Of a stretch of 55,558 nt of DNA, positions 41,312-55,276 are shown in pieces. The first letter of the stretch is position 1. Each line of letters begins with the position of its first letter. The notes under the pieces were generated by a model. The model saw only the letters and a program-made list of their open reading frames with translations, ran no database searches and was not told the DNA's origin. A program made the position numbers and the translations under genes. The stretch is from sequence record SRR20825006_1547; one strand, 5' to 3'.

Positions 41312-41383
41312 AACTTATCTTTTTACGATGCCAATAAAGCTACTATTTGCACGTTGACTTAATTACAACTACATTATTTGACT

Positions 41384-42211
41384 ATGCGATTATCTCTTTC
41401 TATTCTTGTTGCCAGTATCATTTTAGTGAGTTGTGGGTCGGTGAAGAAAGAAAACATTGAGTACTTAGATACAACGTATAAAACTTCCGCAGAAGCTCCT
41501 GAGCTTAATATTTTTCAGCCTAAAGACTCACTGGTAGCTCACGATGTGCTGATTTTTGTTCACGGTGGAAACTGGAACAGCGGAAACAAAAATACCTACT
41601 CGGTACTCGGGCGCAACTTTGCAGGCAAAGATTACCTCACCGTCATTCCCGGATATACGCTGAGTCCGTATGCCAATTACGATCAGATGACTCAAGAGAT
41701 CGCCAAAGCCATTAAGTGGACGCACGATAACGCCGAAGCATACGGCGGCGACCCTAACCGAATCTTTTTAATGGGGCATTCCGCAGGCGGTCATCTGGCT
41801 GCTTTAGCGGCTATGAATCCAAAATATTTAGAAAATACAGATTATATAAAAGGAATTATTCTCGACGATGCAGCCGGACTAGATATGTATTCCTATTTGC
41901 AAGAAAATCCGCCTGGTGAAGAAGAGTATTACAATGTGACCTGGACGACCAACCCTGACGAATGGAAAAACGCTTCGCCGTATTATTTTTTAGATGAAAG
42001 TACGCCACCTATTTTAACCTTGTTGGGAACTAAAACCATTCCTTCACTATACTATTATAATGATTTGTTTCATAAAAAGCTTCTCGAGTTTCAGCCCGAA
42101 GCGCAATTGCTGATTATGAATAAAAATCATACGGCGATGGTGACACAATTTTTCAATCCGTTGAGTAAATATTTTAAAGAGATTCAAAATTTCACTTCAA
42201 GTATCGAGTAA
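41384..42211 (+). CDS. alpha/beta hydrolase (HSL/BD-FAE-like esterase), lipoprotein
   Basis: Lipobox LVSC, HGG oxyanion motif, GHSAG nucleophile. Confidence 0.85.
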   Translation: MRLSLSILVASIILVSCGSVKKENIEYLDTTYKTSAEAPELNIFQPKDSLVAHDVLIFVHGGNWNSGNKNTYSVLGRNFAGKDYLTVIPGYTLSPYANYDQMTQEIAKAIKWTHDNAEAYGGDPNRIFLMGHSAGGHLAALAAMNPKYLENTDYIKGIILDDAAGLDMYSYLQENPPGEEEYYNVTWTTNPDEWKNASPYYFLDESTPPILTLLGTKTIPSLYYYNDLFHKKLLEFQPEAQLLIMNKNHTAMVTQFFNPLSKYFKEIQNFTSSIE

Positions 42212-42240
42212 ACTACCTCAGGCAAGCCTTTGGCAGCGCC

Positions 42241-42277
42241 AATAAAAAAGGGACAGTAAAACTGTCCCTTTTTTATT
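42241..42277. terminator. bidirectional intrinsic terminator
   Basis: AATAAAAAAGGGACAG-TAAAA-CTGTCCCTTTTTTATT. Confidence 0.9.
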
Positions 42278-43571
42278 AATCTTCTTCTGCGATGATTTTA
42301 TTCTGTTTAAACGGTCGCACGATGAGTCGGGCTGCTTTGTCGTAGTTGAGATAACTGTAAGTCCAGTTGAAAAAGGTCACTACCCTATTTCTAAAGCCCA
42401 CGAGAAACCATAAGTGTATAAACATCCAAATAAACCACGCGAGAAATCCACCAAAGTGAATTTTACCCATATCGACCACGGCTTTGTTTCTACCTATGGT
42501 CGCCATTGAGCCTTTATCAAAATATTTAAAGGGCTCTAACTCCTCTTTACGCAGCATCTTTTTAAAATTCTTCGCCAGGTTTTTACCCTGCTGAATAGCG
42601 GGCTGCGCCAATTGCGGATGACCTTTTGGGAAATCTTCGGTTTCCATTAAAGCAATATCTCCAATGGCATATATATTTTGAAAACCAACGACACGGTTGT
42701 ATCGGTCTACCTTATAGCGGTTCAGTTTTGGTAATAAAGCGGTTTCTTCAAAACCTTCGATAGAAGCACCAGTCACACCAGCAGACCAAATAAATGTTGC
42801 GGTATCTAGTACCAAATCTCCTTTTGTAGTCACACGGTTATTCTCATAATTGCCTACAAAAGTTTCTAAGTGAATGGTCACCCCCATTTCCTCTAAAAAC
42901 TTCTGCGCTTTTTCTGAAGATTGCTTGCTAAAAGGCGGTAACACGCGATCTGCACCTTCAATCAGGTGAATTTCAATTTCGCTAGTATCCATATCAGGAT
43001 AGTCTGCTTGGAGGACATTCGAGCGAAGTTCTGCAAAGGCACCACTCAGCTCAACACCAGTTGGGCCGGCTCCAGCGATTACAAAACGTAAAAGTTCTTT
43101 TCGTTTCACCGGATCTTCGGTTCTGTTGGCCTTCTCTAAATTCTCAAACATCAGACTTCGAATGTTTAAAGCCTGCGGAAGGCTTTTCATCCAGATCGCA
43201 TTTTCTTCAATAGTTTTATTTCCGAAGAAATTAGTGCGCGTACCTGTAGCAATCACCAGATGATCATAGTGCAAGTCGCCAATATCAGTACGCACTTTTT
43301 GCAGTTGAGTATCTATACGATGCACTTCAGCCAACCTGAAATGCATATTTTTTTGTTTCCTGATGATTTTCCTGAGTGGGTATGCTATAGATTCTGGCTC
43401 GAGCCCGGAAGTAGATACTTGGTACAATAAAGGCTGAAAGGTGTGAAAATTTCGCTTGTCGAGTAAAACTACTTGATAATCTGTTTTTTTAAGTTTTTTG
43501 ATCAGGTTCATACCTCCAAACCCCCCACCAATAATAACGATGCGTGGTTGGTTAGTTTCAGGAATATTCAT
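42276..43571 (-). CDS. ndh: type II NADH dehydrogenase
   Basis: GGGFGG, FQPLLYQV, GAGPTGVE, YAIGD, AQPAIQQG, KGSMATIGR. Confidence 0.9.
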   Translation of the reverse strand: MNIPETNQPRIVIIGGGFGGMNLIKKLKKTDYQVVLLDKRNFHTFQPLLYQVSTSGLEPESIAYPLRKIIRKQKNMHFRLAEVHRIDTQLQKVRTDIGDLHYDHLVIATGTRTNFFGNKTIEENAIWMKSLPQALNIRSLMFENLEKANRTEDPVKRKELLRFVIAGAGPTGVELSGAFAELRSNVLQADYPDMDTSEIEIHLIEGADRVLPPFSKQSSEKAQKFLEEMGVTIHLETFVGNYENNRVTTKGDLVLDTATFIWSAGVTGASIEGFEETALLPKLNRYKVDRYNRVVGFQNIYAIGDIALMETEDFPKGHPQLAQPAIQQGKNLAKNFKKMLRKEELEPFKYFDKGSMATIGRNKAVVDMGKIHFGGFLAWFIWMFIHLWFLVGFRNRVVTFFNWTYSYLNYDKAARLIVRPFKQNKIIAEED

Positions 43572-43643
43572 GGTAGTCAATTTGTATCAAAGTTAACGTA
43601 CAGGGGCTAGAACCATTAATCTTTATCATTATTTTAGCAATAG

Positions 43644-43695: not shown

Positions 43696-44190
43696 TTGGA
43701 TCCGCAACTTGAAAAACAATTTGTAACACAGCTTGAAGCCAATCAAAATATTGTGCATAAGATCTGCAGGCTTTATACCCACGATCAGGAATCGCATAAT
43801 GATTTGTTTCAAGAAATAACTATTCAATTATTTAAAGCCTATCCTAAATTTAGAGGAGACTCTAAGTTTACCACCTGGATGTATCGTGTAGCGCTCAATA
43901 CAGCAATTACGTTATATCGCAAGTCTAAGCGACGAATTAAAACGCAAGACTACGATAACGTGATGTTTAAAATAGCCAGTACCGATTATGACGACACTAT
44001 TGAAGAACAATTAAAATTAATGTACTCGGCGATCAGGCAACTCAACGATATTGATAAAGCGCTGGTATTTCTTTATCTGGAAGATAAACCCTATAGCGAG
44101 ATCTCTGAAACTTTAGGTATTTCTGAAGTGAACGCCAGAGTAAAAATGAACCGGGTAAAAGGAAAGTTGAAAGACTTATTAAATGTGTAG
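43696..44190 (+). CDS. ECF-type RNA polymerase sigma factor
   Basis: DLFQEI, FTTWMYRVALNT (region 2), YSEISETLGIS (region 4). Confidence 0.95.
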   Translation: MDPQLEKQFVTQLEANQNIVHKICRLYTHDQESHNDLFQEITIQLFKAYPKFRGDSKFTTWMYRVALNTAITLYRKSKRRIKTQDYDNVMFKIASTDYDDTIEEQLKLMYSAIRQLNDIDKALVFLYLEDKPYSEISETLGISEVNARVKMNRVKGKLKDLLNV

Positions 44191-44194
44191 AACG

Positions 44195-44836
44195 ATGGAT
44201 GAATTAGATTTCTTAAAAAAAGACTGGAAGCGCCAAGAGGCAGATCTTCCTAAAGTAAGTGTAGACACCATATATAAAATGATTCATAAACGCTCTTCGT
44301 CTTTGATGAAGTGGATTTTATATGTATCTATTTTTGAGTTTGTATTATGGACTATTCTTAACATAACTACGGTAAACGCCGAAACACTTGAGACACTTAG
44401 ACAAATACATTTGTATGAATTTGAAATTGTAGGTATTGTATTGCAGTATGCCGTTCTAGGCATCTTTATCTATCTATTTTACAAGAATTATAGAGAAGTA
44501 CAAACTACAGATAATACAAAGCATTTAATGAGTCGTATTCTCAAAGTGAGACGTACGGTTAACTTTTATGTCGCTTATAACCTGATAATCTTTTTTATTA
44601 TAGGGATGGTGGTTTTCATTGCGATGCTCAATTTTGACCCGAAGTTCAACGATGTAATGATACAAGCCGAAGACGGTACGCAATCTATGCCGTTAGGATT
44701 TATAGCCGTATTTATTGTGATGCTGCTCGTTCTAGTCGCATTGCTGTGGGCTTTCTACAAGCTGCTTTACGGTATTTTATTACGCCGATTAAAACGTAAT
44801 TACAAAGAGCTTAGCAAGCTAGAAATGCGTGACTAG
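44195..44836 (+). CDS. 4-TM membrane protein, putative anti-sigma
   Basis: MDELD.LKK.W N-terminus and 4 TM helices; directly follows the ECF sigma. Confidence 0.65.
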   Translation: MDELDFLKKDWKRQEADLPKVSVDTIYKMIHKRSSSLMKWILYVSIFEFVLWTILNITTVNAETLETLRQIHLYEFEIVGIVLQYAVLGIFIYLFYKNYREVQTTDNTKHLMSRILKVRRTVNFYVAYNLIIFFIIGMVVFIAMLNFDPKFNDVMIQAEDGTQSMPLGFIAVFIVMLLVLVALLWAFYKLLYGILLRRLKRNYKELSKLEMRD

Positions 44837-44866: not shown

Positions 44867-44897
44867 AAAGCCTGTCTTGATTGAGACAGGCTTTTTT
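44867..44897 (+). terminator. intrinsic terminator
   Basis: AAAGCCTGTCT/AGACAGGCTTT followed by a T tract. Confidence 0.85.
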
Positions 44898-45052: not shown

Positions 45053-47959
45053 ATGCCCAAAGTCTTACTCGTTCTTTTTATTGCTGTTTTGCTGAATGCA
45101 TTTACTGTAAAAGCACAAGAATACACTTCTGCATCTATAAAGCAAACCATTCAAGATTTTAAGAAGGACCCTCGCGGTCCTTATTTACGAATACGTTGGT
45201 TTTGTGAAGATGGCACTATGCGCGAACCTAAAGATCCGTGTCCGGAAGGCGTAGACGGTATTCAGCACGCAAGCTATAAACCGCTAACCGAAAATCTGGC
45301 GGAGCGTAATCATTTATTTTTTGGTGAAATTTTAGCCGCAGCTGATAAAAACAAATTTTGGGATGCAGCACAAGAACAAAGCCGACTGAAACAATACCAA
45401 CTCAACAAATATTTGCAAAGTGTAGATAATGGGTGGATTCTGGAAAAAGCACAATTTTACCGCGGAGCGATTCAATCTGAAGATGAAGAAGCTTGGGGAA
45501 TTGAATTCTACGAATGGTTACTTAAAGATGACGCCCGACTAGAAAAGAATTACTACGTTATTCGTCAATCTTTAAAAGATATCCCGCATTCTGGCGATGA
45601 TAATATTGCCCAGCGTATGCGCAGCGAATCAAAAGTTATCGCTGAAGAATTCCCGAAATTTATGGACGTTCGGGTGAAAATTCACGGGCAGCCTGAAGTT
45701 AGTGATCTTGCTCTTGTGCAAAATTTCCGTCAGGAATATAGCGACGAACTCACTCCAGAACTTAAGGAGCAATTTGATGCTTTAGTGGCTACGCTAAATG
45801 AATATTATGCACCTATCAATTTAGAGCGCCTAAAAAATCAAGTTGCGAGCATTAAAGGGGACTTTGATGTAAAACAGCAACTGCTCAAATTTACCACAGA
45901 CTTTGATAACAACACTCCGGCTTACGACGTCATTCCTGAGATTAGTGATCTTTTGTGCAACATTAGAACGCAGGTAACGCAAGTGAAAAAGGCCTCAGAG
46001 CGTCTAACGCTTTTAGATGTTTCTTTAAAGTTAGAAGAAATGCTTCTGAAAAAAGCCGCAGACTGGGAGCCAGAAGATCTACGCGACCTCTTAGATAAAA
46101 ACTATTACCTAAGCTACGCAACCGCCGGCACCGGACTTCTCGAAGTTTGGGAATGGGAAGAAGTGGCTTCAGTTATTGCTCCTATAAATTATACCACAGT
46201 TTCTTTAGCCGAATTGAATTCCATTTTAAACACTTCGCGCAGCATCGTGCAGTGGAGTGCGGCTATGGCAAAAGCTAATTACGACGCTGTAGTTGAAAAA
46301 TACGCAGAATTTGAACCTCTAGCTACGGGCTTTATTGACGATCGCGTGCGGTCATCTGTAGCGCTTCCTTTAGGAAAAACGGTTAGTGAATTGGGTGATT
46401 TTATTTCAAATAAATCAAACTTGGAGAACGATGTGATGCAAATTGATGAGCAAAGCGCTATTCACGGCTTGAATCCGGGGTATGCACTGGGCGAATTGGT
46501 TGTCGTATCTGGAAATCCGGATGCGGTTGAAGTTTCTAATAAAAAGATCTACATCTTTAAACGTCCACCTTCAGACCTAAAACCGGTTGCCGGAATTGCT
46601 ACTGTAGATGAAGGAAATTTAGTTTCTCACGTACAGCTTCTCGCGCGTAATTTAGGTATTCCTAACGCCGCTTTAAGTGATAAGAATCTTGAAGATCTTC
46701 AAGAGTTTAATGGCGAAGAAGTGTTCTACGCAGTTTCAAATAAAGGTACAGTGATCCTAAAACCTGCAGATGAAATGACTTCAGAAGAAAAAGCGCTTTT
46801 TTCATCTGAAGAACGTAAGCAGACAAAAATTGCCGTCCCAATCGAAAAAATTCAGTTAAATCAAAAAAGCATTCTCAATATGAGGGATATCGATGCTTCC
46901 GCAAGCGGTATTCTGTCGGGTCCAAAAGCTGCAAATTTAGGTCAGTTAAAGAAAATGTTCCCAGATCACGTAGTTGAAGGACTAGTGATCCCATTTGGGA
47001 TTTTTAGAGATCATATGAATCTCCCAATGCCCGGTCAAGGTAAAAGTTACTGGGAATTTCTTACAGAAATGTTTGAAACCGCCGAAGCTAAACGCCAGGC
47101 AGGAACTCCTGATGCTCAGGTGGTAGATTATCAACTCGCCAAACTTGCTACCTTGAGAGACGCGATCAATGCGATGCAATTAAAACCTGCCTTTGTGAGC
47201 GAATTGCGTAATTCATTTGCTTCTATTTTTGGTAAACCTATAGGACAGGCCCCGGTGTTTTTACGTAGTGACACCAATATGGAAGACTTAAAAGAGTTCA
47301 CAGGTGCCGGATTAAACCTGACGCTTTTTAATGTGGTAGAAGAACAAAAGATCTTAGACGGAATTAAAAAAGTATGGGCGTCGCCTTATACCGAGCGTAG
47401 TTTTAAATGGCGCCAGGTGTATCTTTCTAATCCCGAAAATGTGTTTCCTTCAATACTTGTGATCCCAAGTGTTGATGTTGATTATAGCGGCGTTATGATC
47501 ACCAAAGGAATCAACGAAGGAACAGACGAGGATCTTACGGTTGCATTTAGCCGAGGTGCCGGTGGAGCCGTTGACGGTCAAGCTGCCGAAACTCGCTTAG
47601 TAACCGCTAACACGACTAAATTATTAGCTCCAGCAAGACAGCCAGACTATATTAGACTTCCGGTTTCCGGGGGAACCAAAGGATATTCAACCTCTTTTGA
47701 AGCTTCGATCTTGAATGAAAAAAATATTCAAAGTTTGAGAGAAGTGGCAGAAGAAATTAGATCAAAAATTCCTGAAGAAACCAACAGTGATCCTAAGGCT
47801 GCTTATGATGTAGAATTAGGTTTTCAAGATGATAAATTATGGCTGTTTCAGATCAGACCATTTGTCGAAAATAAAAATGCGCTGAGCAATGGGTATCTTG
47901 ACTCCATTTCGCCTAAAACCAATCCTGACGAATATATTGAGATGGATAGCAAACTTTAA
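45053..47959 (+). CDS. secreted PEP/pyruvate-binding-domain dikinase (phosphohistidine swivel + C-terminal ATP-grasp)
   Basis: Signal peptide ...TVKA|QE; GNLVSHVQLLARNLGIP (His526); GPKAANL, RSD.NMED...F.GAGL, DVELGF...LFQIRP. Confidence 0.85.
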   Translation: MPKVLLVLFIAVLLNAFTVKAQEYTSASIKQTIQDFKKDPRGPYLRIRWFCEDGTMREPKDPCPEGVDGIQHASYKPLTENLAERNHLFFGEILAAADKNKFWDAAQEQSRLKQYQLNKYLQSVDNGWILEKAQFYRGAIQSEDEEAWGIEFYEWLLKDDARLEKNYYVIRQSLKDIPHSGDDNIAQRMRSESKVIAEEFPKFMDVRVKIHGQPEVSDLALVQNFRQEYSDELTPELKEQFDALVATLNEYYAPINLERLKNQVASIKGDFDVKQQLLKFTTDFDNNTPAYDVIPEISDLLCNIRTQVTQVKKASERLTLLDVSLKLEEMLLKKAADWEPEDLRDLLDKNYYLSYATAGTGLLEVWEWEEVASVIAPINYTTVSLAELNSILNTSRSIVQWSAAMAKANYDAVVEKYAEFEPLATGFIDDRVRSSVALPLGKTVSELGDFISNKSNLENDVMQIDEQSAIHGLNPGYALGELVVVSGNPDAVEVSNKKIYIFKRPPSDLKPVAGIATVDEGNLVSHVQLLARNLGIPNAALSDKNLEDLQEFNGEEVFYAVSNKGTVILKPADEMTSEEKALFSSEERKQTKIAVPIEKIQLNQKSILNMRDIDASASGILSGPKAANLGQLKKMFPDHVVEGLVIPFGIFRDHMNLPMPGQGKSYWEFLTEMFETAEAKRQAGTPDAQVVDYQLAKLATLRDAINAMQLKPAFVSELRNSFASIFGKPIGQAPVFLRSDTNMEDLKEFTGAGLNLTLFNVVEEQKILDGIKKVWASPYTERSFKWRQVYLSNPENVFPSILVIPSVDVDYSGVMITKGINEGTDEDLTVAFSRGAGGAVDGQAAETRLVTANTTKLLAPARQPDYIRLPVSGGTKGYSTSFEASILNEKNIQSLREVAEEIRSKIPEETNSDPKAAYDVELGFQDDKLWLFQIRPFVENKNALSNGYLDSISPKTNPDEYIEMDSKL

Positions 47960-47990
47960 ACTTCCGCAGTAATTTCTATAAAAACAACCT

Positions 47991-49280
47991 ATGAAAAAAG
48001 TACTAATCTGCATACCGGTCATTCTCTTAACCTTAGCATTTGCAGTACCTGACAGCTTCTACCCTATTGACGGATACGAACGAACAGGTATTGACAGACT
48101 GGCCCAATTAGAAAAAATAGTGCGCGACAGTATTGCGTATAATCGTATTCCGGCCGGAGCCTATCTTTCGGTTGAGGATATCAAACTTCGATTGACCGGA
48201 AAACAAGATAGCGCGATCGCTTATATGACTGAGGATGCAGAATTTCAGAAAAAAATAGGCAGTTTGTTTTATGGTTTAGACCAGAGCTATTCGATCTCGG
48301 TATTAGATATGACTGATAGTACTAATCTTAAATACGCTGCGCGAAATGAAACCCGAGGATATCAACCGGGAAGCGTGGGTAAATTAGCTATTCTTATCGC
48401 GATGTTTGATCAACTCGAAAAATTGTGTCCTGATGATTGGGGTGCACGAGTGAACCTACTCAAATATAAACGTGTAAAAGGCGGTCCGTTTGCAGTATAT
48501 GACCATCACACGATTCCTGTTTATGATATTGAGCAAGATAAATTAACCCGAAGAACCGCGCGCGAGGATGATGTTTTTAGCCTTTATGAATGGATTGACC
48601 ATATGGTTGCCGTAAGTAATAACGGGGCTGCCAGCGTGGTCTATCGTGAGGCTTTATTGCTGAAAGTTTTTGGAGAAAAATACTTTGATCTTACTGACGA
48701 GGAAGCTATGCAATGGTTTAAAGATACAGATCGTGGCGAGGTGACCAGACTTGCTAATGAAGTAGTAAACGAACCTTTACGCGCAATGGGAATCACAGAA
48801 GATGAGTGGCGTCTGGGTGGTTTTTTTACTAATGGTGGAGAACGCTACGTAGGCAGAATGGGCGGCAGTATTGGTTCACCAAAAGGGTTGATGAAGTTTT
48901 TGATCAATCTAGAACAAGGGAAAGCGGTAGACTCTCTTTCTAGTTTAGAAATGAAACGCATTATGTATCAAACAGAGCGTCGCATTCGGTATGCATATTC
49001 TCACGAATTAGACTCAGCCGCTGTGTATTTCAAAAGCGGAAGTTTTTATAAATGTGATAAAAGCAAAGGTGCTTGCGGTGACTATGCCGGAAATGTTTTT
49101 AATTATATGAATTCTGTAATTATTGTAGAGCATCCTGATGACGGTCCCAAGTATATTGTATGTCTTATGACTAACGTGCTTAGGAAAAATTCGGCTACAG
49201 ATCATATGTATCTCGCAAGCCGTATTGATAAAGTTTTACAAGAAGTAAACCAGCCAAAAGCTTCAGCTACGGGGCAATAA
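47991..49280 (+). CDS. secreted serine hydrolase, class-A beta-lactamase/PBP-like fold
   Basis: Signal peptide; S128-V-G-K, S209-N-N, K348-S-G. Confidence 0.8.
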   Translation: MKKVLICIPVILLTLAFAVPDSFYPIDGYERTGIDRLAQLEKIVRDSIAYNRIPAGAYLSVEDIKLRLTGKQDSAIAYMTEDAEFQKKIGSLFYGLDQSYSISVLDMTDSTNLKYAARNETRGYQPGSVGKLAILIAMFDQLEKLCPDDWGARVNLLKYKRVKGGPFAVYDHHTIPVYDIEQDKLTRRTAREDDVFSLYEWIDHMVAVSNNGAASVVYREALLLKVFGEKYFDLTDEEAMQWFKDTDRGEVTRLANEVVNEPLRAMGITEDEWRLGGFFTNGGERYVGRMGGSIGSPKGLMKFLINLEQGKAVDSLSSLEMKRIMYQTERRIRYAYSHELDSAAVYFKSGSFYKCDKSKGACGDYAGNVFNYMNSVIIVEHPDDGPKYIVCLMTNVLRKNSATDHMYLASRIDKVLQEVNQPKASATGQ

Positions 49281-49301
49281 CATATAAAATTGGTACGCAT
49301 T

Positions 49302-49333
49302 AAATCCCGTTCATTTTTTGGACGGGATTTTTT
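49302..49333 (+). terminator. intrinsic terminator closing the dikinase operon
   Basis: AAATCCCGTTCA/TGGACGGGATTT followed by a T tract. Confidence 0.8.
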
Positions 49334-49443
49334 ATTTACCAAGTTCATTTAAGTCTAAAAATTCTCGTCAGATTATTAAAGAATCTTACTAAATTCAAAC
49401 GGAATTCAGATTCAGAAAATAACCAATACGCACCATAAGTCCT

Positions 49444-49902
49444 ATGAATACTATTCAGTATAAAAAAGAGATTCAAGCGCCCGCGACAAAAGTGTACCGT
49501 ACGATGCTAGGCCTAGATAACATTAAAACTTATGAGAAGTGGACGGCAGCGTTTGATCCCACTTCCACCTATGAAGGAAGTTGGGATAAAGGTTCAAAAA
49601 TATACTTTGTGGGTACTGATAAAGAAGGGAACCGTGGCGGAATGATTTCTGAAATCGTCGAGAATATTGCTAACGAATTTATCTCTATACGCCATTATGG
49701 AATTTTAAAAGGAACTCAGGAAATTACTGAAGGTCCTGAGGTAGCATCGTGGGCTGGTAACCTAGAGAATTATAGCTTTAAGGAGCATCAAGGGATCACC
49801 ACAGTTACCGTAACGAGCGAGGTCCCTGAAGATTATCTTGATTACTTTAATACTACGTGGTCCAAAGCTTTAGACAAGCTTAAAGAACTTTCTGAAGCTT
49901 AA
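49444..49902 (+). CDS. SRPBCC/AHSA1-like domain protein
   Basis: I.AP..KV....L...TY..WT..F, E.Y.F.E..G.TT, W.KAL.KLK. Confidence 0.8.
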   Translation: MNTIQYKKEIQAPATKVYRTMLGLDNIKTYEKWTAAFDPTSTYEGSWDKGSKIYFVGTDKEGNRGGMISEIVENIANEFISIRHYGILKGTQEITEGPEVASWAGNLENYSFKEHQGITTVTVTSEVPEDYLDYFNTTWSKALDKLKELSEA

Positions 49903-49969
49903 ATCTTAGGTTGAGATACTTAAATTAAATTTCAGATTTGTGTCAAAAACATTTTTCAACTAATTTTAC

Positions 49970-49996
49970 ATCGCACACGATTTAATCGCAAAAGAT
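49970..49996. promoter_or_regulatory. candidate OhrR/MarR operator
   Basis: ATCGCACACGAT and ATCGCAAAAGAT at 15-bp period; core CACGATT-T-AATCGCA. Confidence 0.55.
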
Positions 49997-50001
49997 ATAA
50001 A

Positions 50002-50424
50002 ATGAAATATACTACCACTCAAAGCGTTTTTAGAATTATCTTAGGTACTTTAATGGCCATTGCCGGCGTTGGCCATCTCACCTTTCAGCGACAAGAATTT
50101 CAGGCTCAGGTACCACGCTGGCTACCGGATAGTGCCGCTTTTATGGATTTTGTGGTCCTCGCTTCGGGGGTTACAGAAATTCTATTAGGTCTTGCAATGA
50201 TCTTTTTAACCAAGCATCGCATTAAAGTGGGTTTGATTTTAGCGCTTTTTTATGTGCTGATCTTTCCAGGAAACATTTCACAGTACACCAATGGTATTGA
50301 TGCTTTTGGTTTAGATACGGATCAAAAAAGGTTAATACGCTTGTTTTTTCAACCGGTGTTAATCTTATGGGCGCTTTGGTCTACCGGAGCACTCACCTAT
50401 TTGAAGAATAGATTTAAAAAATAA
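50002..50424 (+). CDS. DoxX-like membrane protein
   Basis: AGVGH, VP.WLP, SG..EI.LG, FPGNI, RLFFQP. Confidence 0.8.
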   Translation: MKYTTTQSVFRIILGTLMAIAGVGHLTFQRQEFQAQVPRWLPDSAAFMDFVVLASGVTEILLGLAMIFLTKHRIKVGLILALFYVLIFPGNISQYTNGIDAFGLDTDQKRLIRLFFQPVLILWALWSTGALTYLKNRFKK

Positions 50425-50427
50425 GCT

Positions 50428-50901
50428 ATGAATTTCTACGATTTAGAAGCCAAAACACTTCAGGGAGAAACGATCTCAATGAATTCTTTTAAGGGAAAAA
50501 CGGTTCTTGTAGTGAACACTGCGAGCAAGTGCGGCCTTACGCCACAATATGAGGGACTTGAAGCACTGTATGAGAAGTATAAAGATAATGGTTTAGAGAT
50601 TTTAGGCTTTCCTTGTAATCAGTTTGGTAATCAAGAGCCTGGTGGCGCTGATGCCATAGAAGAATTTTGCCAGGTGAATTACGGTGTTCATTTCAAAATG
50701 TTTGATAAAATTGAGGTTAATGGCAGTAATACGCATCCCGTTTTTAACTACCTAAAGAAGCAGCTTGGCGGAACTTTAGGAAGTCGTATTAAATGGAATT
50801 TCACCAAATTTCTCATTGACAAAGACGGACAACCTGTAAAGCGCTTTTCACCCCTGACTAAGCCCGAGCATCTGACTAAAGACATTGAAAAAATTCTGTA
50901 A
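50428..50901 (+). CDS. gpx: glutathione peroxidase family peroxidase (Cys-type)
   Basis: [27 protein letters not shown]. Confidence 0.95.
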
Positions 50902-51363
50902 ATGAATCAAGAAACTCCTCAATTGCATCTTGAAAACCAATTATGTTTTCCACTTTATGCGGCTTCACGGCTTATGACCAAAATGTATGCTCCTTTGCTA
51001 AAAAAACTGGATGTAACCTACCCGCAATATTTGGTTCTATTGGTTTTATGGCAAAATGGCGAACAGACCGTGAATGCCATTGGATCCTGCTTACTCTTAG
51101 AATCTAACACCCTCACTCCTCTTCTTAAACGCTTAGAACAAAAAGAGTTATTGGTGCGTAGTCGTGCCCAGCACGATGAGCGTGTGGTTTTAGTCAAACT
51201 CACACCTAGCGGTCAAGCGCTAAAGGAAAAAGCAGTAAGTATTCCGCAGCAAATTGCACGTCTTTTTAACGACGTAGATCTTAAAGAAGAAGATTATACC
51301 ATCTTTGAGAAAACCTTAGCCCAGCTTGTACTGGTGTTGAAAGAACGCAGTCAGGAAATTTAA
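50902..51363 (+). CDS. ohrR: MarR family regulator, OhrR-like
   Basis: LENQLCFPLYAASR sensor Cys, TYPQYLVL, TLTPLLKRLE, DER.V...LT..G. Confidence 0.8.
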   Translation: MNQETPQLHLENQLCFPLYAASRLMTKMYAPLLKKLDVTYPQYLVLLVLWQNGEQTVNAIGSCLLLESNTLTPLLKRLEQKELLVRSRAQHDERVVLVKLTPSGQALKEKAVSIPQQIARLFNDVDLKEEDYTIFEKTLAQLVLVLKERSQEI

Positions 51364-54209
51364 GACCCTATCGAATTACCTGTTGCCGTATCTAATAAAG
51401 CAGGTTGCAACTTTTTAAGCGCTAAGGAAGCGAAAGAGCGCACATCACGATTTTTAGCGGTTATTTTGAGTTCGGCAAGCAATGGAAGGAATGAAGTATC
51501 TCCTAAAAATTGAATCAAATAAATCACAGGAAGTCTAAGGTTACCATCACCTACCTCAATGAGTTTTATAAGGGCCTTATTAAAACTGATATCATCTTCT
51601 AAAATCTCTTGATACACATCGACGTCTTCGATAATAGCGAGCTCTAATAAAGGCAATAAACTGTGTTTTAATTTAGGGGAAAGAATATTATCTAAAAACT
51701 CTATAGCATTCGCTCTAGTATCGCGATCTGTACTCACAAAACCTTTGTAGGCCACATCAAGATCTTTTCGGCTGTAGTACACCGCGAGAAGTTGAAAAAT
51801 GGTTTCAATACGCAAGCTTAGCTGTCGGTCTAAAACCTCTAGCAGACCTTCGCGTGCTTGAAGTAATTCGGTTTGATCATCTTCCGGTAAGCGATCATAT
51901 GCCTTAGCATTAAAATTACTTTTGATCACTTTACGACTACTTACAATATCCCGATACTCAAAGGTATACTGCAGTAGAAGCCTAAATACCGTTTTAGGGA
52001 AATAATTAAGCTTAGGATTCTTTCCTTTTAATTTATGCAATGACTTTGCTGAAGCACGGCGAATAAGGTTATCGCGACTCTGGAGTAAGCGCAGTAATAC
52101 ACGCACAGAAGCCTGTGTCTCAAACGTCTGTATCACCGCCGGAATATACTTTTTTGCGTTATTTTTCAATAACTTTTCAGCTTCTCTGGCCAGCAAAATC
52201 TCACTAATGCTTTCCCCGTAGGCGATAAGCGCTGCGATGGCATCTTTTCGGTATTGTTTAACCGTAAGAAAATCAATCAACGCATCAATAAATTGCGGAG
52301 CTCTGGAAATTCCTGCAGCGATAATGGCGTGGCTTACAATATGCGGATTTCGGTTATTAAAGTTAGCCGAAATAAAAGAATAGAATTGCGGCATCTGCGC
52401 GTAACCAATAGACTCTAACAGAAACGACAGTTCCTCAGGACGGTGATCGCTATCAGGTAATTCTAATTCTGCCAGCCACAACTCAATACGCAATTCAAGA
52501 TTGTAGCGGCTTGCGATCTGTTTATTATTTCGTGCTTCTTTTGCCAAGCAAAGTAAGGCTGCGTGCGCAATATAATCGCTGCTGTGATTGAGATAGCTAT
52601 CAAAAATTCGGCTATCATTTAGCGAGGTATGCAAAATGAGATAATTCATCGCCGCATACACTACTTCGTCATCTTTAAGATGCACCATATCACGCACGGC
52701 CTCTAGCGCGGTACCCTCAGGATAATGGTAGAGTTGATTAATCGCAGCGATTTTAACCGCATCGTCTTCGTGATTCAGTAGAGGAATGATCTTTTGCTTT
52801 AAGATCTTTGCATTTCGTTTATTTAGGTGGTTGAGATATTCTACAATTTGTAAAGGATTCCCATTGCTTAAAATACGTTTTCCCAACTCTAGAGGTGACT
52901 TACGCTTGCGCCTCGGAACGCCTTCGGTGACCTCAACAGCTTCTTTAAGACTTTGTCTAAAACTCTTAAAGTAAGAATCTCTAACTCTAAAAATTCCGAC
53001 AATCCAAACCAAAATCAGAAAAATGATAATTACCGTAACATAGTTAGATGGTAACGACAATCCTTTTATCACAAAAATTAAAAGACAGCCGGCAATTCCT
53101 GTAGCGACACTATCAACCACCACATCGATAAATGATTTGGTGCGGTTTTTTATTTCTAAAGAAACCGGCACCATCGCAAGTTCGGTAGCAGCTTTATTTA
53201 CAGATTGTTTAAAGCTTCCGTCAATACCTTTGATGATTATGAGCACCCATAATTCTGGAAATGTCAGGAATAATAAAGAGCCTAATGCAATACCTAACGG
53301 AAGGATTAACAACGAACTATTAACTCCCAACTTTTCTACTACCCGGTTGGTCAAAAACAATTGAATCCCAAGCGAGACCAAATTGAAGGTCGAAAACCAA
53401 AAGCCAAAAAACGAAGCCAACTGATCTGCATCAGGAATGGATCGCGCAGCAAAATCACTAAATTGAAAATCAACAAGTTTAGCAACAATAACACCTAAAC
53501 CTATGATCAAGGCCAGATAGGTTAAGTGTCGCGATTTTAATAAAAGCTTATATGCAGAATCCCCAAGCGATTGGTTGCTACTTTCTGAAATTGAAGCTCT
53601 GCTTACGTATCCCTTTTTATAGATCAAGGATAGTAACGGAATACAAGAAATTATAAACAATGCGGCAATCAGCAGCATGTTTCCATTACCAATATACGGC
53701 ACCAGAATAGTCGTTAAGTAGCCTCCAAAAATCCCTCCTGCAATTGCCCCTGAACCGATGAAACCAAAAAGTCTTTTGGCTTCTCTGGCATTAAATACCA
53801 TATTAGCTAACAACCAAAATTGACTTGTGGTAAGCACGGCGAAAATTCCGCTAATCACATAAAAAATATAAAGCGCTATGGCGCCGATAGCGTTTAGCTT
53901 ATACAATACGGCCAAAAACACAAAAGCCAGTGCAAAGAACACCAGCGATGAAACCATAATACGACGTAAAGAATACCGCCTTACCGCTTGATTATAAAAA
54001 TATGATGTTACGATTGCCGTTGCAGCAATAAGTAAATAACCAAACGCAAGACTATCTGCTCCCAGCCCTTTTAAAAAAAGCGCGTTGACAGTAGGTTTTA
54101 CAATAAGCAGGATCGTGATGATCAAAAAGACGTATAACTGCATGAAAAAAGAGATGGTTATCTCACCATCTCTTATATTAAACGTCTTTTTAAGGAACTT
54201 CTTAATCAC
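51360..54209 (-). CDS. NTT/TLC (Npt1/Npt2) family nucleotide translocase fused to HEAT repeats
   Basis: 12-TM N-half with FW.LAN.VF..REAKRLF and K.FIDV; helical-repeat C-half (RANAIEFLDN); GTG start overlaps the upstream gene. Confidence 0.85.
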   Translation of the reverse strand: MIKKFLKKTFNIRDGEITISFFMQLYVFLIITILLIVKPTVNALFLKGLGADSLAFGYLLIAATAIVTSYFYNQAVRRYSLRRIMVSSLVFFALAFVFLAVLYKLNAIGAIALYIFYVISGIFAVLTTSQFWLLANMVFNAREAKRLFGFIGSGAIAGGIFGGYLTTILVPYIGNGNMLLIAALFIISCIPLLSLIYKKGYVSRASISESSNQSLGDSAYKLLLKSRHLTYLALIIGLGVIVAKLVDFQFSDFAARSIPDADQLASFFGFWFSTFNLVSLGIQLFLTNRVVEKLGVNSSLLILPLGIALGSLLFLTFPELWVLIIIKGIDGSFKQSVNKAATELAMVPVSLEIKNRTKSFIDVVVDSVATGIAGCLLIFVIKGLSLPSNYVTVIIIFLILVWIVGIFRVRDSYFKSFRQSLKEAVEVTEGVPRRKRKSPLELGKRILSNGNPLQIVEYLNHLNKRNAKILKQKIIPLLNHEDDAVKIAAINQLYHYPEGTALEAVRDMVHLKDDEVVYAAMNYLILHTSLNDSRIFDSYLNHSSDYIAHAALLCLAKEARNNKQIASRYNLELRIELWLAELELPDSDHRPEELSFLLESIGYAQMPQFYSFISANFNNRNPHIVSHAIIAAGISRAPQFIDALIDFLTVKQYRKDAIAALIAYGESISEILLAREAEKLLKNNAKKYIPAVIQTFETQASVRVLLRLLQSRDNLIRRASAKSLHKLKGKNPKLNYFPKTVFRLLLQYTFEYRDIVSSRKVIKSNFNAKAYDRLPEDDQTELLQAREGLLEVLDRQLSLRIETIFQLLAVYYSRKDLDVAYKGFVSTDRDTRANAIEFLDNILSPKLKHSLLPLLELAIIEDVDVYQEILEDDISFNKALIKLIEVGDGNLRLPVIYLIQFLGDTSFLPLLAELKITAKNRDVRSFASLALKKLQPALLDTATGNSIGS

Positions 54210-55140
54210 CTAAGTTGCCAGCGCCTTTTGTAGCACTCGCAAGTAAAGTTCGAGATTTTTGTAGAGCTTTCTCTACAGGAAATACTAAATTTCTTATAAT
54301 TTGTTCACCGTTAGGATCTTCAATAAGCGCAACCATAATATACTTGCGACCATCTTCTCCCCAAACTAAAATAGAATCTGAATGATATTGTTTCCAAGAA
54401 CCAGATTTTCTAAATAGACGTGCATTAGGTGCAATGCGCTCAAGCGTATTTACAAACTTGTGGTGCAATGAAGGATTCTCCATAATGTCGAGCATTGCTT
54501 TAGAACGCTCTGGGCTTACCAATTTACCGGTAACTAATTTGTAGTAAAATCTGCAAACTTGTTCTGCAGTTGCGGCGTGGCTGAGTCCTTTCATTGGTTC
54601 AGGTCTGCGTTCTCCGGCAGCCGCATAACGCTTGCCTACCCAAAGACCACCGCCTTTATTCTGATCGTATAACTTATAACGGTCGCTGGTAAGTACACTT
54701 GAGATTTTGTCATACCCCAGACGATCAATCATACGGGTACTGGCCTGATTATTTGATTTACTGATCATTAACCACATATCCTTTTTAACCTCTGCGGTTT
54801 CTTTAAGTTCTCCTTTTTCGATCGCATCCATCGCTGAAAGTAGGATTGCAATTTTAGGCAAACTCGCAGCATACATCATTTCTTCACCGTTAAGACCTGC
54901 ATATTGAATCGCATTAGGGTCATCAAGACTCACAATACCCACAGCCATCTTTTTCTGGTCTACTAGGCGTTTCATTGTAGGATCTTTAGCGATCTGATTG
55001 TATAATTGAGTAGTTAAAACACTGCTGTTAAAATCTTCTAGCGGTGCATCAATACAATCTTTAAATGGAAGTTCTTGTGCAGTTATTTTTGAAGTCATTG
55101 CTACTACTAGCAATACAAGGGCGAAACTTAGTTTTCTCAT
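54202..55140 (-). CDS. secreted serine hydrolase, class-A beta-lactamase/PBP-like fold
   Basis: Signal peptide ...ITA|QE; YAASLPK (SxxK), SNN, KSG. Confidence 0.85.
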   Translation of the reverse strand: MRKLSFALVLLVVAMTSKITAQELPFKDCIDAPLEDFNSSVLTTQLYNQIAKDPTMKRLVDQKKMAVGIVSLDDPNAIQYAGLNGEEMMYAASLPKIAILLSAMDAIEKGELKETAEVKKDMWLMISKSNNQASTRMIDRLGYDKISSVLTSDRYKLYDQNKGGGLWVGKRYAAAGERRPEPMKGLSHAATAEQVCRFYYKLVTGKLVSPERSKAMLDIMENPSLHHKFVNTLERIAPNARLFRKSGSWKQYHSDSILVWGEDGRKYIMVALIEDPNGEQIIRNLVFPVEKALQKSRTLLASATKGAGNLGD

Positions 55141-55260
55141 AAACAATTTTTGGGTCTAATTGATTTTGGGGCTTTAACGCAATATTTACATTAATAGTAT
55201 GCAAAGGTTAAAGAAAAATCAACCTAAAATCAATATTTAACATTCTTTGTTTTAAATAGT

Positions 55261-55276
55261 TGCAAGCGCTATGCCA
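55261..55276 (-). promoter_or_regulatory. sigma-54 promoter-like motif for the serine hydrolase-NTT operon
   Basis: TGGCAT-AGCGC-TTGCA, 120 nt upstream of the ATG. Confidence 0.6.

Follow-up and report, generated by a model that had tools for sequence, protein, structure and literature searches.

A conserved four-gene module of Flavobacteriaceae pairs a putatively exported dikinase with a nucleotide-carrier-family protein and two PBP-A-like hydrolases

Potato glucan, water dikinase GWD1 (StGWD1) is built from two CBM45 carbohydrate-binding modules (CBMs), a central domain of 20 helices (residues 483-926, ∼444 aa), a histidine domain (residues 931-1050) and an ATP-binding domain (residues 1069-1387); its central domain is described as having no clear PDB equivalent (2026, PMC13553574). 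Carriers of the TLC/NTT family fused to HEAT repeats are, according to the sections of a survey on which we draw, widespread in free-living bacteria and uncharacterised, and the TLC-family proteins of known substrate all move nucleotides (Major, Embley and Williams 2017, PMC5381601). The penicillin-binding protein PBP-A, finally, is described in excerpts of PMC11189452 as a DD-peptidase specific for amidated muropeptides. Here we have analysed a stretch of 55,558 nt from sequence record SRR20825006_1547 (the window, 99% identical to Leeuwenhoekiella palythoae record L001), in which a dikinase, an NTT-HEAT carrier and two PBP-A-like hydrolases are encoded together. A preliminary description of this DNA had proposed that the carrier feeds a dikinase located in the periplasm. 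We are practically certain that the four genes form a real module, and the proposed reading is partly supported; it agrees with all the computational tests run on the sequences.

The four genes lie where the preliminary description had placed them, in two convergent operons:
45053-47959, + strand: dikinase, open reading frame (ORF) of 968 aa
47991-49280, + strand: hydrolase 2, ORF of 429 aa; predicted exported acyl-serine enzyme of the PBP-A / class A β-lactamase fold, with S128xxK131, S209xN211, K348SG350 and the cysteine pair C355/C362
51360-54209, - strand: NTT-HEAT carrier, ORF of 949 aa
54202-55146, - strand: hydrolase 4, ORF of 314 aa; predicted exported PBP-A-like acyl-serine enzyme, with S95xxK98, S131xN133 and K247SG249; the in-frame ATG at 55140 is the start chosen previously

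Dikinase and hydrolase 2 are 31 nt apart, the hydrolase 4 stop overlaps the carrier start by 8 nt, and the spacer between the operons, previously put at about 2 kb, measures 2.1 kb and holds four small genes on the + strand. We take the four ORFs to be real genes and not chance ORFs, as full-length relatives number in the hundreds for every one of them. None of the four proteins received a usable name from NCBIfam.

Whether these genes co-occur and cluster in other genomes had been named as a check on the proposal, and they do both. Within the genus, dikinase and NTT-HEAT carrier are present in the same 18 of 23 genomes, lying ∼1.3 kb apart in four of the more divergent species and separated by ∼3 kb in two others, one of them the nearest genome to the window. 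The family was sampled with 301 Flavobacteriaceae genomes representing 300 genera. The dikinase was found in 56 of them, and a full-length NTT-HEAT gene (E < 1e-140) in 55 of these 56 versus 0 of the 245 dikinase-negative genomes, five of which gave only a weak TLC-like match of ∼430-455 aa. The distribution is patchy (55 of the 300 genera). In 49 of the 55 genomes carrying both genes the distance between them was at most 3.5 kb; one showed a distance of 70 kb, another of 2 Mb, and in four the genes were on different contigs. To count complete modules we used 80 loci from named genomes with 10-kb flanks, considering those with at least 6.5 kb downstream. All four genes were together in 58 of the 65 loci that were long enough; of the seven others, six are from Leeuwenhoekiella and one ends too early. 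The dikinase is kept at full length with 57-60% identity over many genera, and the gene order is fixed. When the 1,919 ORFs of 160 loci were clustered, only the four families recurred widely, the next largest cluster having 22 ORFs.

In a wider sample of 401 Bacteroidota genomes the dikinase was present in 12, spread over at least five families, and all 12 had a TLC-family match (E <= 1e-10). Linkage is looser outside Flavobacteriaceae: one genome has all four genes adjacent; in another, dikinase and hydrolase 2 are adjacent to the end of a carrier gene, where the contig stops; three have dikinase and both hydrolases adjacent and the carrier elsewhere; and one has the dikinase alone, with an NTT-HEAT gene 150 kb away. 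The Pfam TLC model matched none of 14 control genomes. The same model missed an adjacent carrier in genome G476 that tblastn found, and family searches therefore under-count.

The dikinase family comprises 357 clusters at 50% identity (E <= 1e-30), with full-length members down to ∼30% identity, and its distant branch is represented by 80 loci from sediment metagenomes whose dikinase is 31-35% identical to that of the window. Named relatives in this branch are few and proteobacterial, belonging to Gammaproteobacteria (Sulfuriflexus, Granulosicoccaceae) and Syntrophobacterales. In these loci, too, the gene after the dikinase is hydrolase 2, with hydrolase 4 and a TLC-family gene alongside, and all four parts were found in 20 of the 25 loci long enough to hold them. 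The usual carrier of the branch is a TLC protein of 427 aa without HEAT repeats (TLC, 61.8 bits); a 722-aa form with a short HEAT part occurs in nine loci, and two carriers stand in tandem in three. Taken together, these comparisons show that, across Flavobacteriaceae, other Bacteroidota and the distant branch, the four genes are retained or lost as a set and mostly lie together.

Ten of the 80 distant loci also encode, inside the module or at most one gene away, a predicted exported lipoprotein with a lipobox that belongs to the e(P4)-type HAD-IIIB acid phosphatase / 5′-nucleotidase family:
L098, L117, L123, L129, L135, L141, L145, L151, L153 and L160: nucleotidase lipoprotein (example, L160:14222-15112)

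It may, for example, follow hydrolase 2 and precede a convergent carrier gene (dikinase, hydrolase 2, phosphatase, then carrier on the other strand), or follow hydrolase 4. The one protein scanned against Pfam scored 140.9 bits, and three gave 181-280 bits with TIGR01533, one of them above the 216-bit cut-off. This nucleotidase was not found in the 80 Flavobacteriaceae loci. It may be an accessory fifth part of the module, and a nucleotidase/phosphatase facing the periplasm fits with the release of AMP, or the formation of phospho-esters, outside the cytoplasm.

The domains of the dikinase were delimited as follows:
45053-45115, + strand: residues 1-21, signal peptide with a predicted small-x-small cleavage site followed by Gln; reads as a Sec signal
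45116-46456, + strand: residues 22-468, N-domain of 20 helices and one β hairpin in the AlphaFold2 model (mean predicted local distance difference test, pLDDT, 92.9)
46457-46849, + strand: residues ∼469-599, swivel phosphohistidine domain with invariant His526
46850-47959, + strand: C-terminal ATP-grasp (PPDK_N) nucleotide-binding domain, placed by Pfam and PDB matches

PPDK_N was the only Pfam match on the protein (residues 666-943, 81.2 bits against a cut-off of 27). A profile of the dikinase family built from 80 sequences matched in the PDB the phosphoenolpyruvate (PEP) synthase 8a8e and the Listeria entries 5hv1-5hv6 and 5fbs, with E values from 1.8e-34 to 3e-25, and the core motifs of the domain align and are invariant. 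His526 is invariant in 16 of 16 aligned sequences. The swivel domain is recognisable by the match of the same 80-sequence profile to the PPDK histidine domain (E 0.0088) and by the PEP-utilizers model PF00391, which scored above its cut-off in five of eight distant relatives and was not reported at E <= 0.01 for the window's own dikinase. Pfam and NCBIfam revealed no PEP/pyruvate-binding TIM barrel. The ATP-grasp and swivel histidine domains are common to this protein and to PEP synthase, PPDK and rifampin phosphotransferase, from which it differs in that the order is permuted, with the ATP-grasp last instead of first, in that it lacks a TIM barrel or rifampin-binding domain, in that it appears to be exported, and in that its NCBIfam scores fall far under every equivalog cut-off.

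The likeness to GWD1 and PWD is one of architecture. Both have a helical domain (∼445 aa and 20 helices here) followed by a phosphohistidine domain and a C-terminal PPDK_N-type ATP domain, and they presumably share the chemistry in which the β-phosphate passes via a histidine to the acceptor, leaving AMP and inorganic phosphate. In contrast to these enzymes, the window's dikinase has no CBM45 or CBM20 starch-binding module, its signal peptide leading straight into the helical domain without any CBM match; it carries a Sec signal, whereas GWD is plastidic; and it is accompanied by PBP-like enzymes and a nucleotide carrier in place of the amylases and glucan phosphatases associated with GWD. In order and size of domains it corresponds to the GWD1 core without the CBMs, which does not imply kinship between the helical domains. 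No GWD entry (9HA9, 9QVI) appeared among the Foldseek, VIA-align or PDB sequence matches, although these entries may postdate the libraries searched.

We presume that the N-domain binds the acceptor. It is rich in conserved aromatic and charged residues, and its hairpin carries a cysteine pair, C51/C63, that is invariant in both alignments of 13-16 sequences and at least 90% conserved among 80 sequences. Searches of solved structures with its fold gave no convincing counterpart: Foldseek retrieved nothing better than E 0.14 from the PDB, and the highest Z that VIA-align reached against 48,161 chains was 9.0, for 96 residues of a designed helix bundle, a value at noise level for helical models. 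The ESM Atlas returned only fragments resembling the same family (best score 0.84). Complex prediction for the N-domain with hydrolase 2 scored 0.00, a result that counts neither way. Eight slightly longer relatives of the dikinase had no additional Pfam domain, and a search for fused forms that would name the acceptor yielded only three long proteins, none with the N-domain. One of them, the metagenomic P0405 (1815 aa), has a swivel-histidine domain and then PPDK_N, the order seen in the dikinase, and these are fused to cadherin and cadherin-like domains; without the helical N-domain, it may be another extracellular dikinase. Another, P0407 (2360 aa), from a metagenome-assembled genome of Paceibacterota, has an N-terminal PPDK_N domain and five PEP-utilizers swivel domains.

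Signal peptides had been assigned to the dikinase and both hydrolases, and the composition of their N-termini bears this out. In each, a short basic stretch is followed by 12-16 hydrophobic residues in a row and by a small-x-small site, and in two of the three a Gln stands right after the cleavage site. Within the dikinase family, an N-terminal hydrophobic segment was detected, by a crude measure, in 149 of 154 ORFs. Both deep branches of the family show signal-like N-termini, which vary in sequence and have small-x-small sites, and no further strongly hydrophobic anchor is needed to explain the layout. A cytoplasmic location, against which the preliminary description was to be checked, agrees poorly with these N-termini, with the conserved cysteine pair and with an operon shared with exported enzymes; we consider it highly probable that the dikinase is extracytoplasmic.

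The carrier has two parts:
52980-54209, - strand: residues 1-410, TLC/NTT-family transporter domain (TLC, 52.9 bits)
51360-52979, - strand: residues 411-949, HEAT-repeat domain, predicted cytoplasmic (HEAT_2, 62 bits)

The Pfam cut-off for TLC is 21 bits, and the HEAT model itself gave 26.1 bits. Residues 113-420 match the plastid ATP/ADP carrier 9j3j, with FW..AN...EAK, E.A..P and K..IDVV as common signature stretches of the family. Of 96 module-linked carriers, no fewer than 93 retain each of K38, E343, K358 and D362. Hydropathy indicates ten clear hydrophobic spans and two weaker ones read in the loops 247-298 and 318-362; TLC/NTT carriers have twelve. Hydropathy and the positive-inside rule predict that both ends are cytoplasmic, and the HEAT domain would therefore be cytoplasmic too. 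The protein shares with the described NTT-HEAT clade the fusion of a TLC/NTT domain to C-terminal HEAT repeats. It differs in that the sections of PMC5381601 used here name cyclic nucleoside monophosphate-binding domains as partners of the clade and mention neither a dikinase nor PBP-like neighbours, whereas the carrier of the module goes with a dikinase that appears to be exported, and in that the distant branch of the module uses the HEAT-less protein of 427 aa.

Some variants of the carrier genes deserve mention. NTT-HEAT-like genes that are 27-30% identical and encode ∼910-940 aa occur in dikinase-negative Bacteroidota (for example G693, G438, G544, G646, G590, G634 and G685), often with a second, short TLC gene in tandem. 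The carrier matches of G105, G188 and G068 each contain one in-frame stop, for which decay or sequencing error are possible explanations, as they are for G701. Of the two NTT-HEAT genes of genome G077, one is so close to the dikinase (55 nt) that hydrolase 2 would not fit between them, and the other is on a different contig.

The two hydrolases match the Pfam family Beta-lactamase2 with 41.6 bits (hydrolase 2) and 77.3 bits (hydrolase 4), and their SxxK, SxN and KSG motifs are invariant in 124 of 124 hydrolase 2 ORFs and 100 of 100 hydrolase 4 ORFs. In hydrolase 2 the pair C355/C362 is invariant as well. The first Foldseek match of its AlphaFold2 model (pLDDT 88.9) was PBP-A (2j7v; E 5.6e-10; TM score 0.73 by target), with class A β-lactamases coming next. 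For hydrolase 4, compared by sequence only, the nearest solved protein was PBP-A Tll2115 of Thermosynechococcus (E 6.6e-4). Neither hydrolase reached the curated cut-off for class A β-lactamases: NCBIfam bla_class_A gave 24.8 bits versus a cut-off of 200 for hydrolase 4 and no match for hydrolase 2. Judged by these matches, both are PBP-A-like enzymes with the full acyl-serine motif set of DD-peptidases. With PBP-A Tll2115 (Thermosynechococcus elongatus), the nearest solved relative of both, and with class A β-lactamases they have SxxK, SxN and KxG in common; they differ from PBP-A in that identity in structural alignments is only 12-17% and in that hydrolase 2 is ∼150 residues longer.

The simplest account of these observations, to which we give an even chance, would be that an exported water-dikinase-type enzyme receives its nucleotide from the TLC carrier and acts with two DD-peptidase-type enzymes on an envelope substrate; the family assignments suggest that such bacteria feed ATP into the periplasm. 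The carrier, in the inner membrane, would export cytoplasmic ATP or another nucleoside triphosphate, probably in exchange for spent nucleotide, with its HEAT domain, where present, on the cytoplasmic side. That it supplies the nucleotide of the dikinase we regard as slightly favoured. The C-terminal ATP-grasp of the periplasmic dikinase would bind ATP and His526 would take the β-phosphate, as in water dikinases; the histidine domain would then swing to the helical N-domain and phosphorylate the acceptor held there, AMP and phosphate remaining. The most speculative step concerns the acceptor, which might be linked to the cell wall, either as peptidoglycan or as a polymer or peptide processed by the two PBP-A-like enzymes. 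Phosphorylation might prime or mark it for these enzymes, akin to the way in which starch phosphorylation opens starch to amylases. An acceptor related to peptidoglycan is a tentative choice, and we think it rather doubtful.

Several observations weigh against this account. We infer ATP export, its exchange partner and the acceptor; everything said on ATP export derives from the carrier's membership in the TLC family, as does nucleotide transport itself. The carrier bears a weak likeness (E 6.3e-6) to the ATP/ADP carriers solved from plastids and bacteria, and the characterised TLC carriers are importers or exchangers as far as the cited sections go (PMC5381601). ATP released into the periplasm would leak through outer-membrane pores. 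The fold searches offer no clue to the acceptor of the N-domain, and 104 of 155 dikinases also hold an internal 12-mer over the hydrophobicity threshold used for their N-termini. Linkage has exceptions too: the carrier lies 65-70 kb from the dikinase in three Leeuwenhoekiella and on different contigs in the remaining genomes of the genus with both genes; it is 2 Mb away in G188; it stands apart from the dikinase in G674, G677, G689 and G701, the match in the last having two in-frame stops; and in the dikinase genome G149, 90% complete and in 610 contigs, no NTT-HEAT gene was found. The Flavobacteriaceae counts overstate independence and significance because genomes of one family are kin. Finally, TLC or NTT-HEAT-like genes occur in 26 of 389 dikinase-negative Bacteroidota genomes, and the carrier family must therefore have other roles; because all 12 dikinase genomes of that sample have a carrier as well, the dikinase implies the carrier and not the reverse. 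The carrier family is thus wider than the module, which corrects the preliminary description.

Other explanations keep appreciable weight. Since the order and sizes of its domains equal those of the StGWD1 core, the dikinase could be a bacterial GWD counterpart that phosphorylates a periplasmic or capsular polysaccharide, with the β-lactamase-fold pair as esterases or remodellers and the carrier still supplying nucleotide. The conserved aromatic and charged residues of the N-domain would suit such a glycan acceptor, as would the hosts of the module, which are marine polysaccharide-degrading Flavobacteriaceae. However, no carbohydrate-binding module or glycoside hydrolase recurs in the 160 loci, and both partners keep the complete DD-peptidase motif set, their nearest solved relative, PBP-A, being a peptidoglycan DD-peptidase in the excerpts cited (PMC11189452); we consider a glycan acceptor unlikely. 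The Listeria entries matched by the ATP-grasp domain (5hv1-5hv6, 5fbs) are named as rifampin phosphotransferase in the GWD paper (PMC13553574), which brings to mind resistance or detoxification: the exported dikinase would phosphorylate a periplasmic antibiotic or toxin, by analogy with rifampin phosphotransferase in the cytoplasm, and related compounds would be hydrolysed by the two β-lactamase-fold enzymes. The patchy distribution over genera and the MarR regulator and stress genes inserted in the window point the same way, but most relatives' loci lack those inserted genes, nothing mobile recurs among the neighbours, and the fixed gene order and full-length conservation over many genera (57-60% identity) speak against it. 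NCBIfam scores lie far below the resistance models as well (Rph, 42.9 versus 999; class A β-lactamase, 24.8 versus 200), and we hold this explanation to be distinctly unlikely.

Two further explanations change the part played by the carrier. With flow reversed, the carrier would import nucleotide, and either the dikinase would make external ATP by combining AMP and phosphate with the phosphate of a phosphorylated substrate from the environment, or external nucleotides would be salvaged by the module. PPDK-type chemistry is indeed reversible, although water-dikinase reactions run strongly forward. An AMP-requiring reaction is also opposed by the AMP-degrading e(P4)-type nucleotidase in 10 modules, and the two DD-peptidase-like partners would be left unexplained. 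Thus reversed flow seems very unlikely to us, even if all the characterised TLC carriers import or exchange nucleotides (PMC5381601, sections cited). Alternatively, dikinase and carrier might be inherited together through one envelope process without the former being fuelled by the latter, the carrier moving another solute and the dikinase using another donor or acting before export. The carriers that are unlinked in several genomes or present without a dikinase (26 of 389), and their weak likeness to proven ATP/ADP carriers, would be accounted for in this way. Against it stand the invariant ATP-grasp motifs, the near-perfect match of presence and absence within the family and the nucleotides moved by every TLC protein of known substrate (PMC5381601, as above), and we assign it a similarly low probability.

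The surroundings of the module in the window comprise the following features:
44867-44894, + strand: terminator-like hairpin upstream of the dikinase, with a 12-pair stem and a T tail
49302-49330, + strand: terminator-like hairpin closing the dikinase-hydrolase 2 operon
49444-51363, + strand: four inserted genes, SRPBCC-like, DoxX-like, glutathione peroxidase and MarR, outside the module

The matches of the inserted genes were weak for AHSA1/SRPBCC and DoxX/MauE and clear in bits for glutathione peroxidase (151.6) and the MarR/SarA-type regulator (70.4). In most other loci the gap between hydrolase 2 and the carrier is of mere tens of bases; the genes at 49444-51363 are a lineage-specific insertion and not members of the module, and they are missing here from most relatives. 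The pair of carrier and hydrolase 4 has moved 65-70 kb off or onto another contig in most other species of Leeuwenhoekiella. The upstream hairpin divides the dikinase from a pair of genes just before it (43696-44836), one for an extracytoplasmic function (ECF) sigma factor (Sigma70_r2/r4) and the other, overlapping it, for a protein of 217 aa that belongs to no family and is possibly an anti-sigma factor. This pair recurs only in 11 closely related loci, mostly of Leeuwenhoekiella. Further upstream (41378-43580) are a BD-FAE / α/β-hydrolase esterase (277 aa) and an NDH-2-type pyridine nucleotide-disulphide oxidoreductase (434 aa), both of ordinary appearance. A scan for sigma-70 promoters was uninformative (26 sites versus 32.1 expected).

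Contigs 90-99% alike from four marine metatranscriptome runs, belonging to four studies, cover parts of all four genes. One of them crosses the hydrolase 4 / carrier junction; none crosses the junction between dikinase and hydrolase 2, and each of the four runs leaves parts of the stretch uncovered, contigs from RNA libraries indicating presence only and neither transcript ends nor levels.

Among the titles and abstracts listed by searches of the open literature, none describes an exported dikinase with a nucleotide carrier. Textbooks describe a periplasm free of ATP, in which envelope chemistry must always be driven indirectly. The widely conserved pairing of a putatively exported ATP-grasp dikinase with an ATP/ADP-transporter-family carrier opens this assumption to direct testing, and the hosts of the module include harmless, culturable marine Flavobacteriaceae. 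One could go further and imagine, in some Gram-negative bacteria, an adenylate shuttle, with ATP moving out and spent nucleotide back through the TLC carrier, that makes the periplasm an ATP-using compartment; the dikinase would activate a carboxylate or hydroxyl of peptidoglycan, and the PBP-A-like enzymes could cut or re-join wall peptides without the energy of D-Ala-D-Ala. We regard this extension as quite improbable; if true, shuttle and activated peptidoglycan would amount to energy-coupled wall repair outside the cytoplasm. If the simpler account holds, it would provide the first function for part of the uncharacterised NTT and NTT-HEAT proteins of free-living bacteria, and the cell envelope, or some substrate handled in it, would prove to undergo a covalent modification of a new kind.

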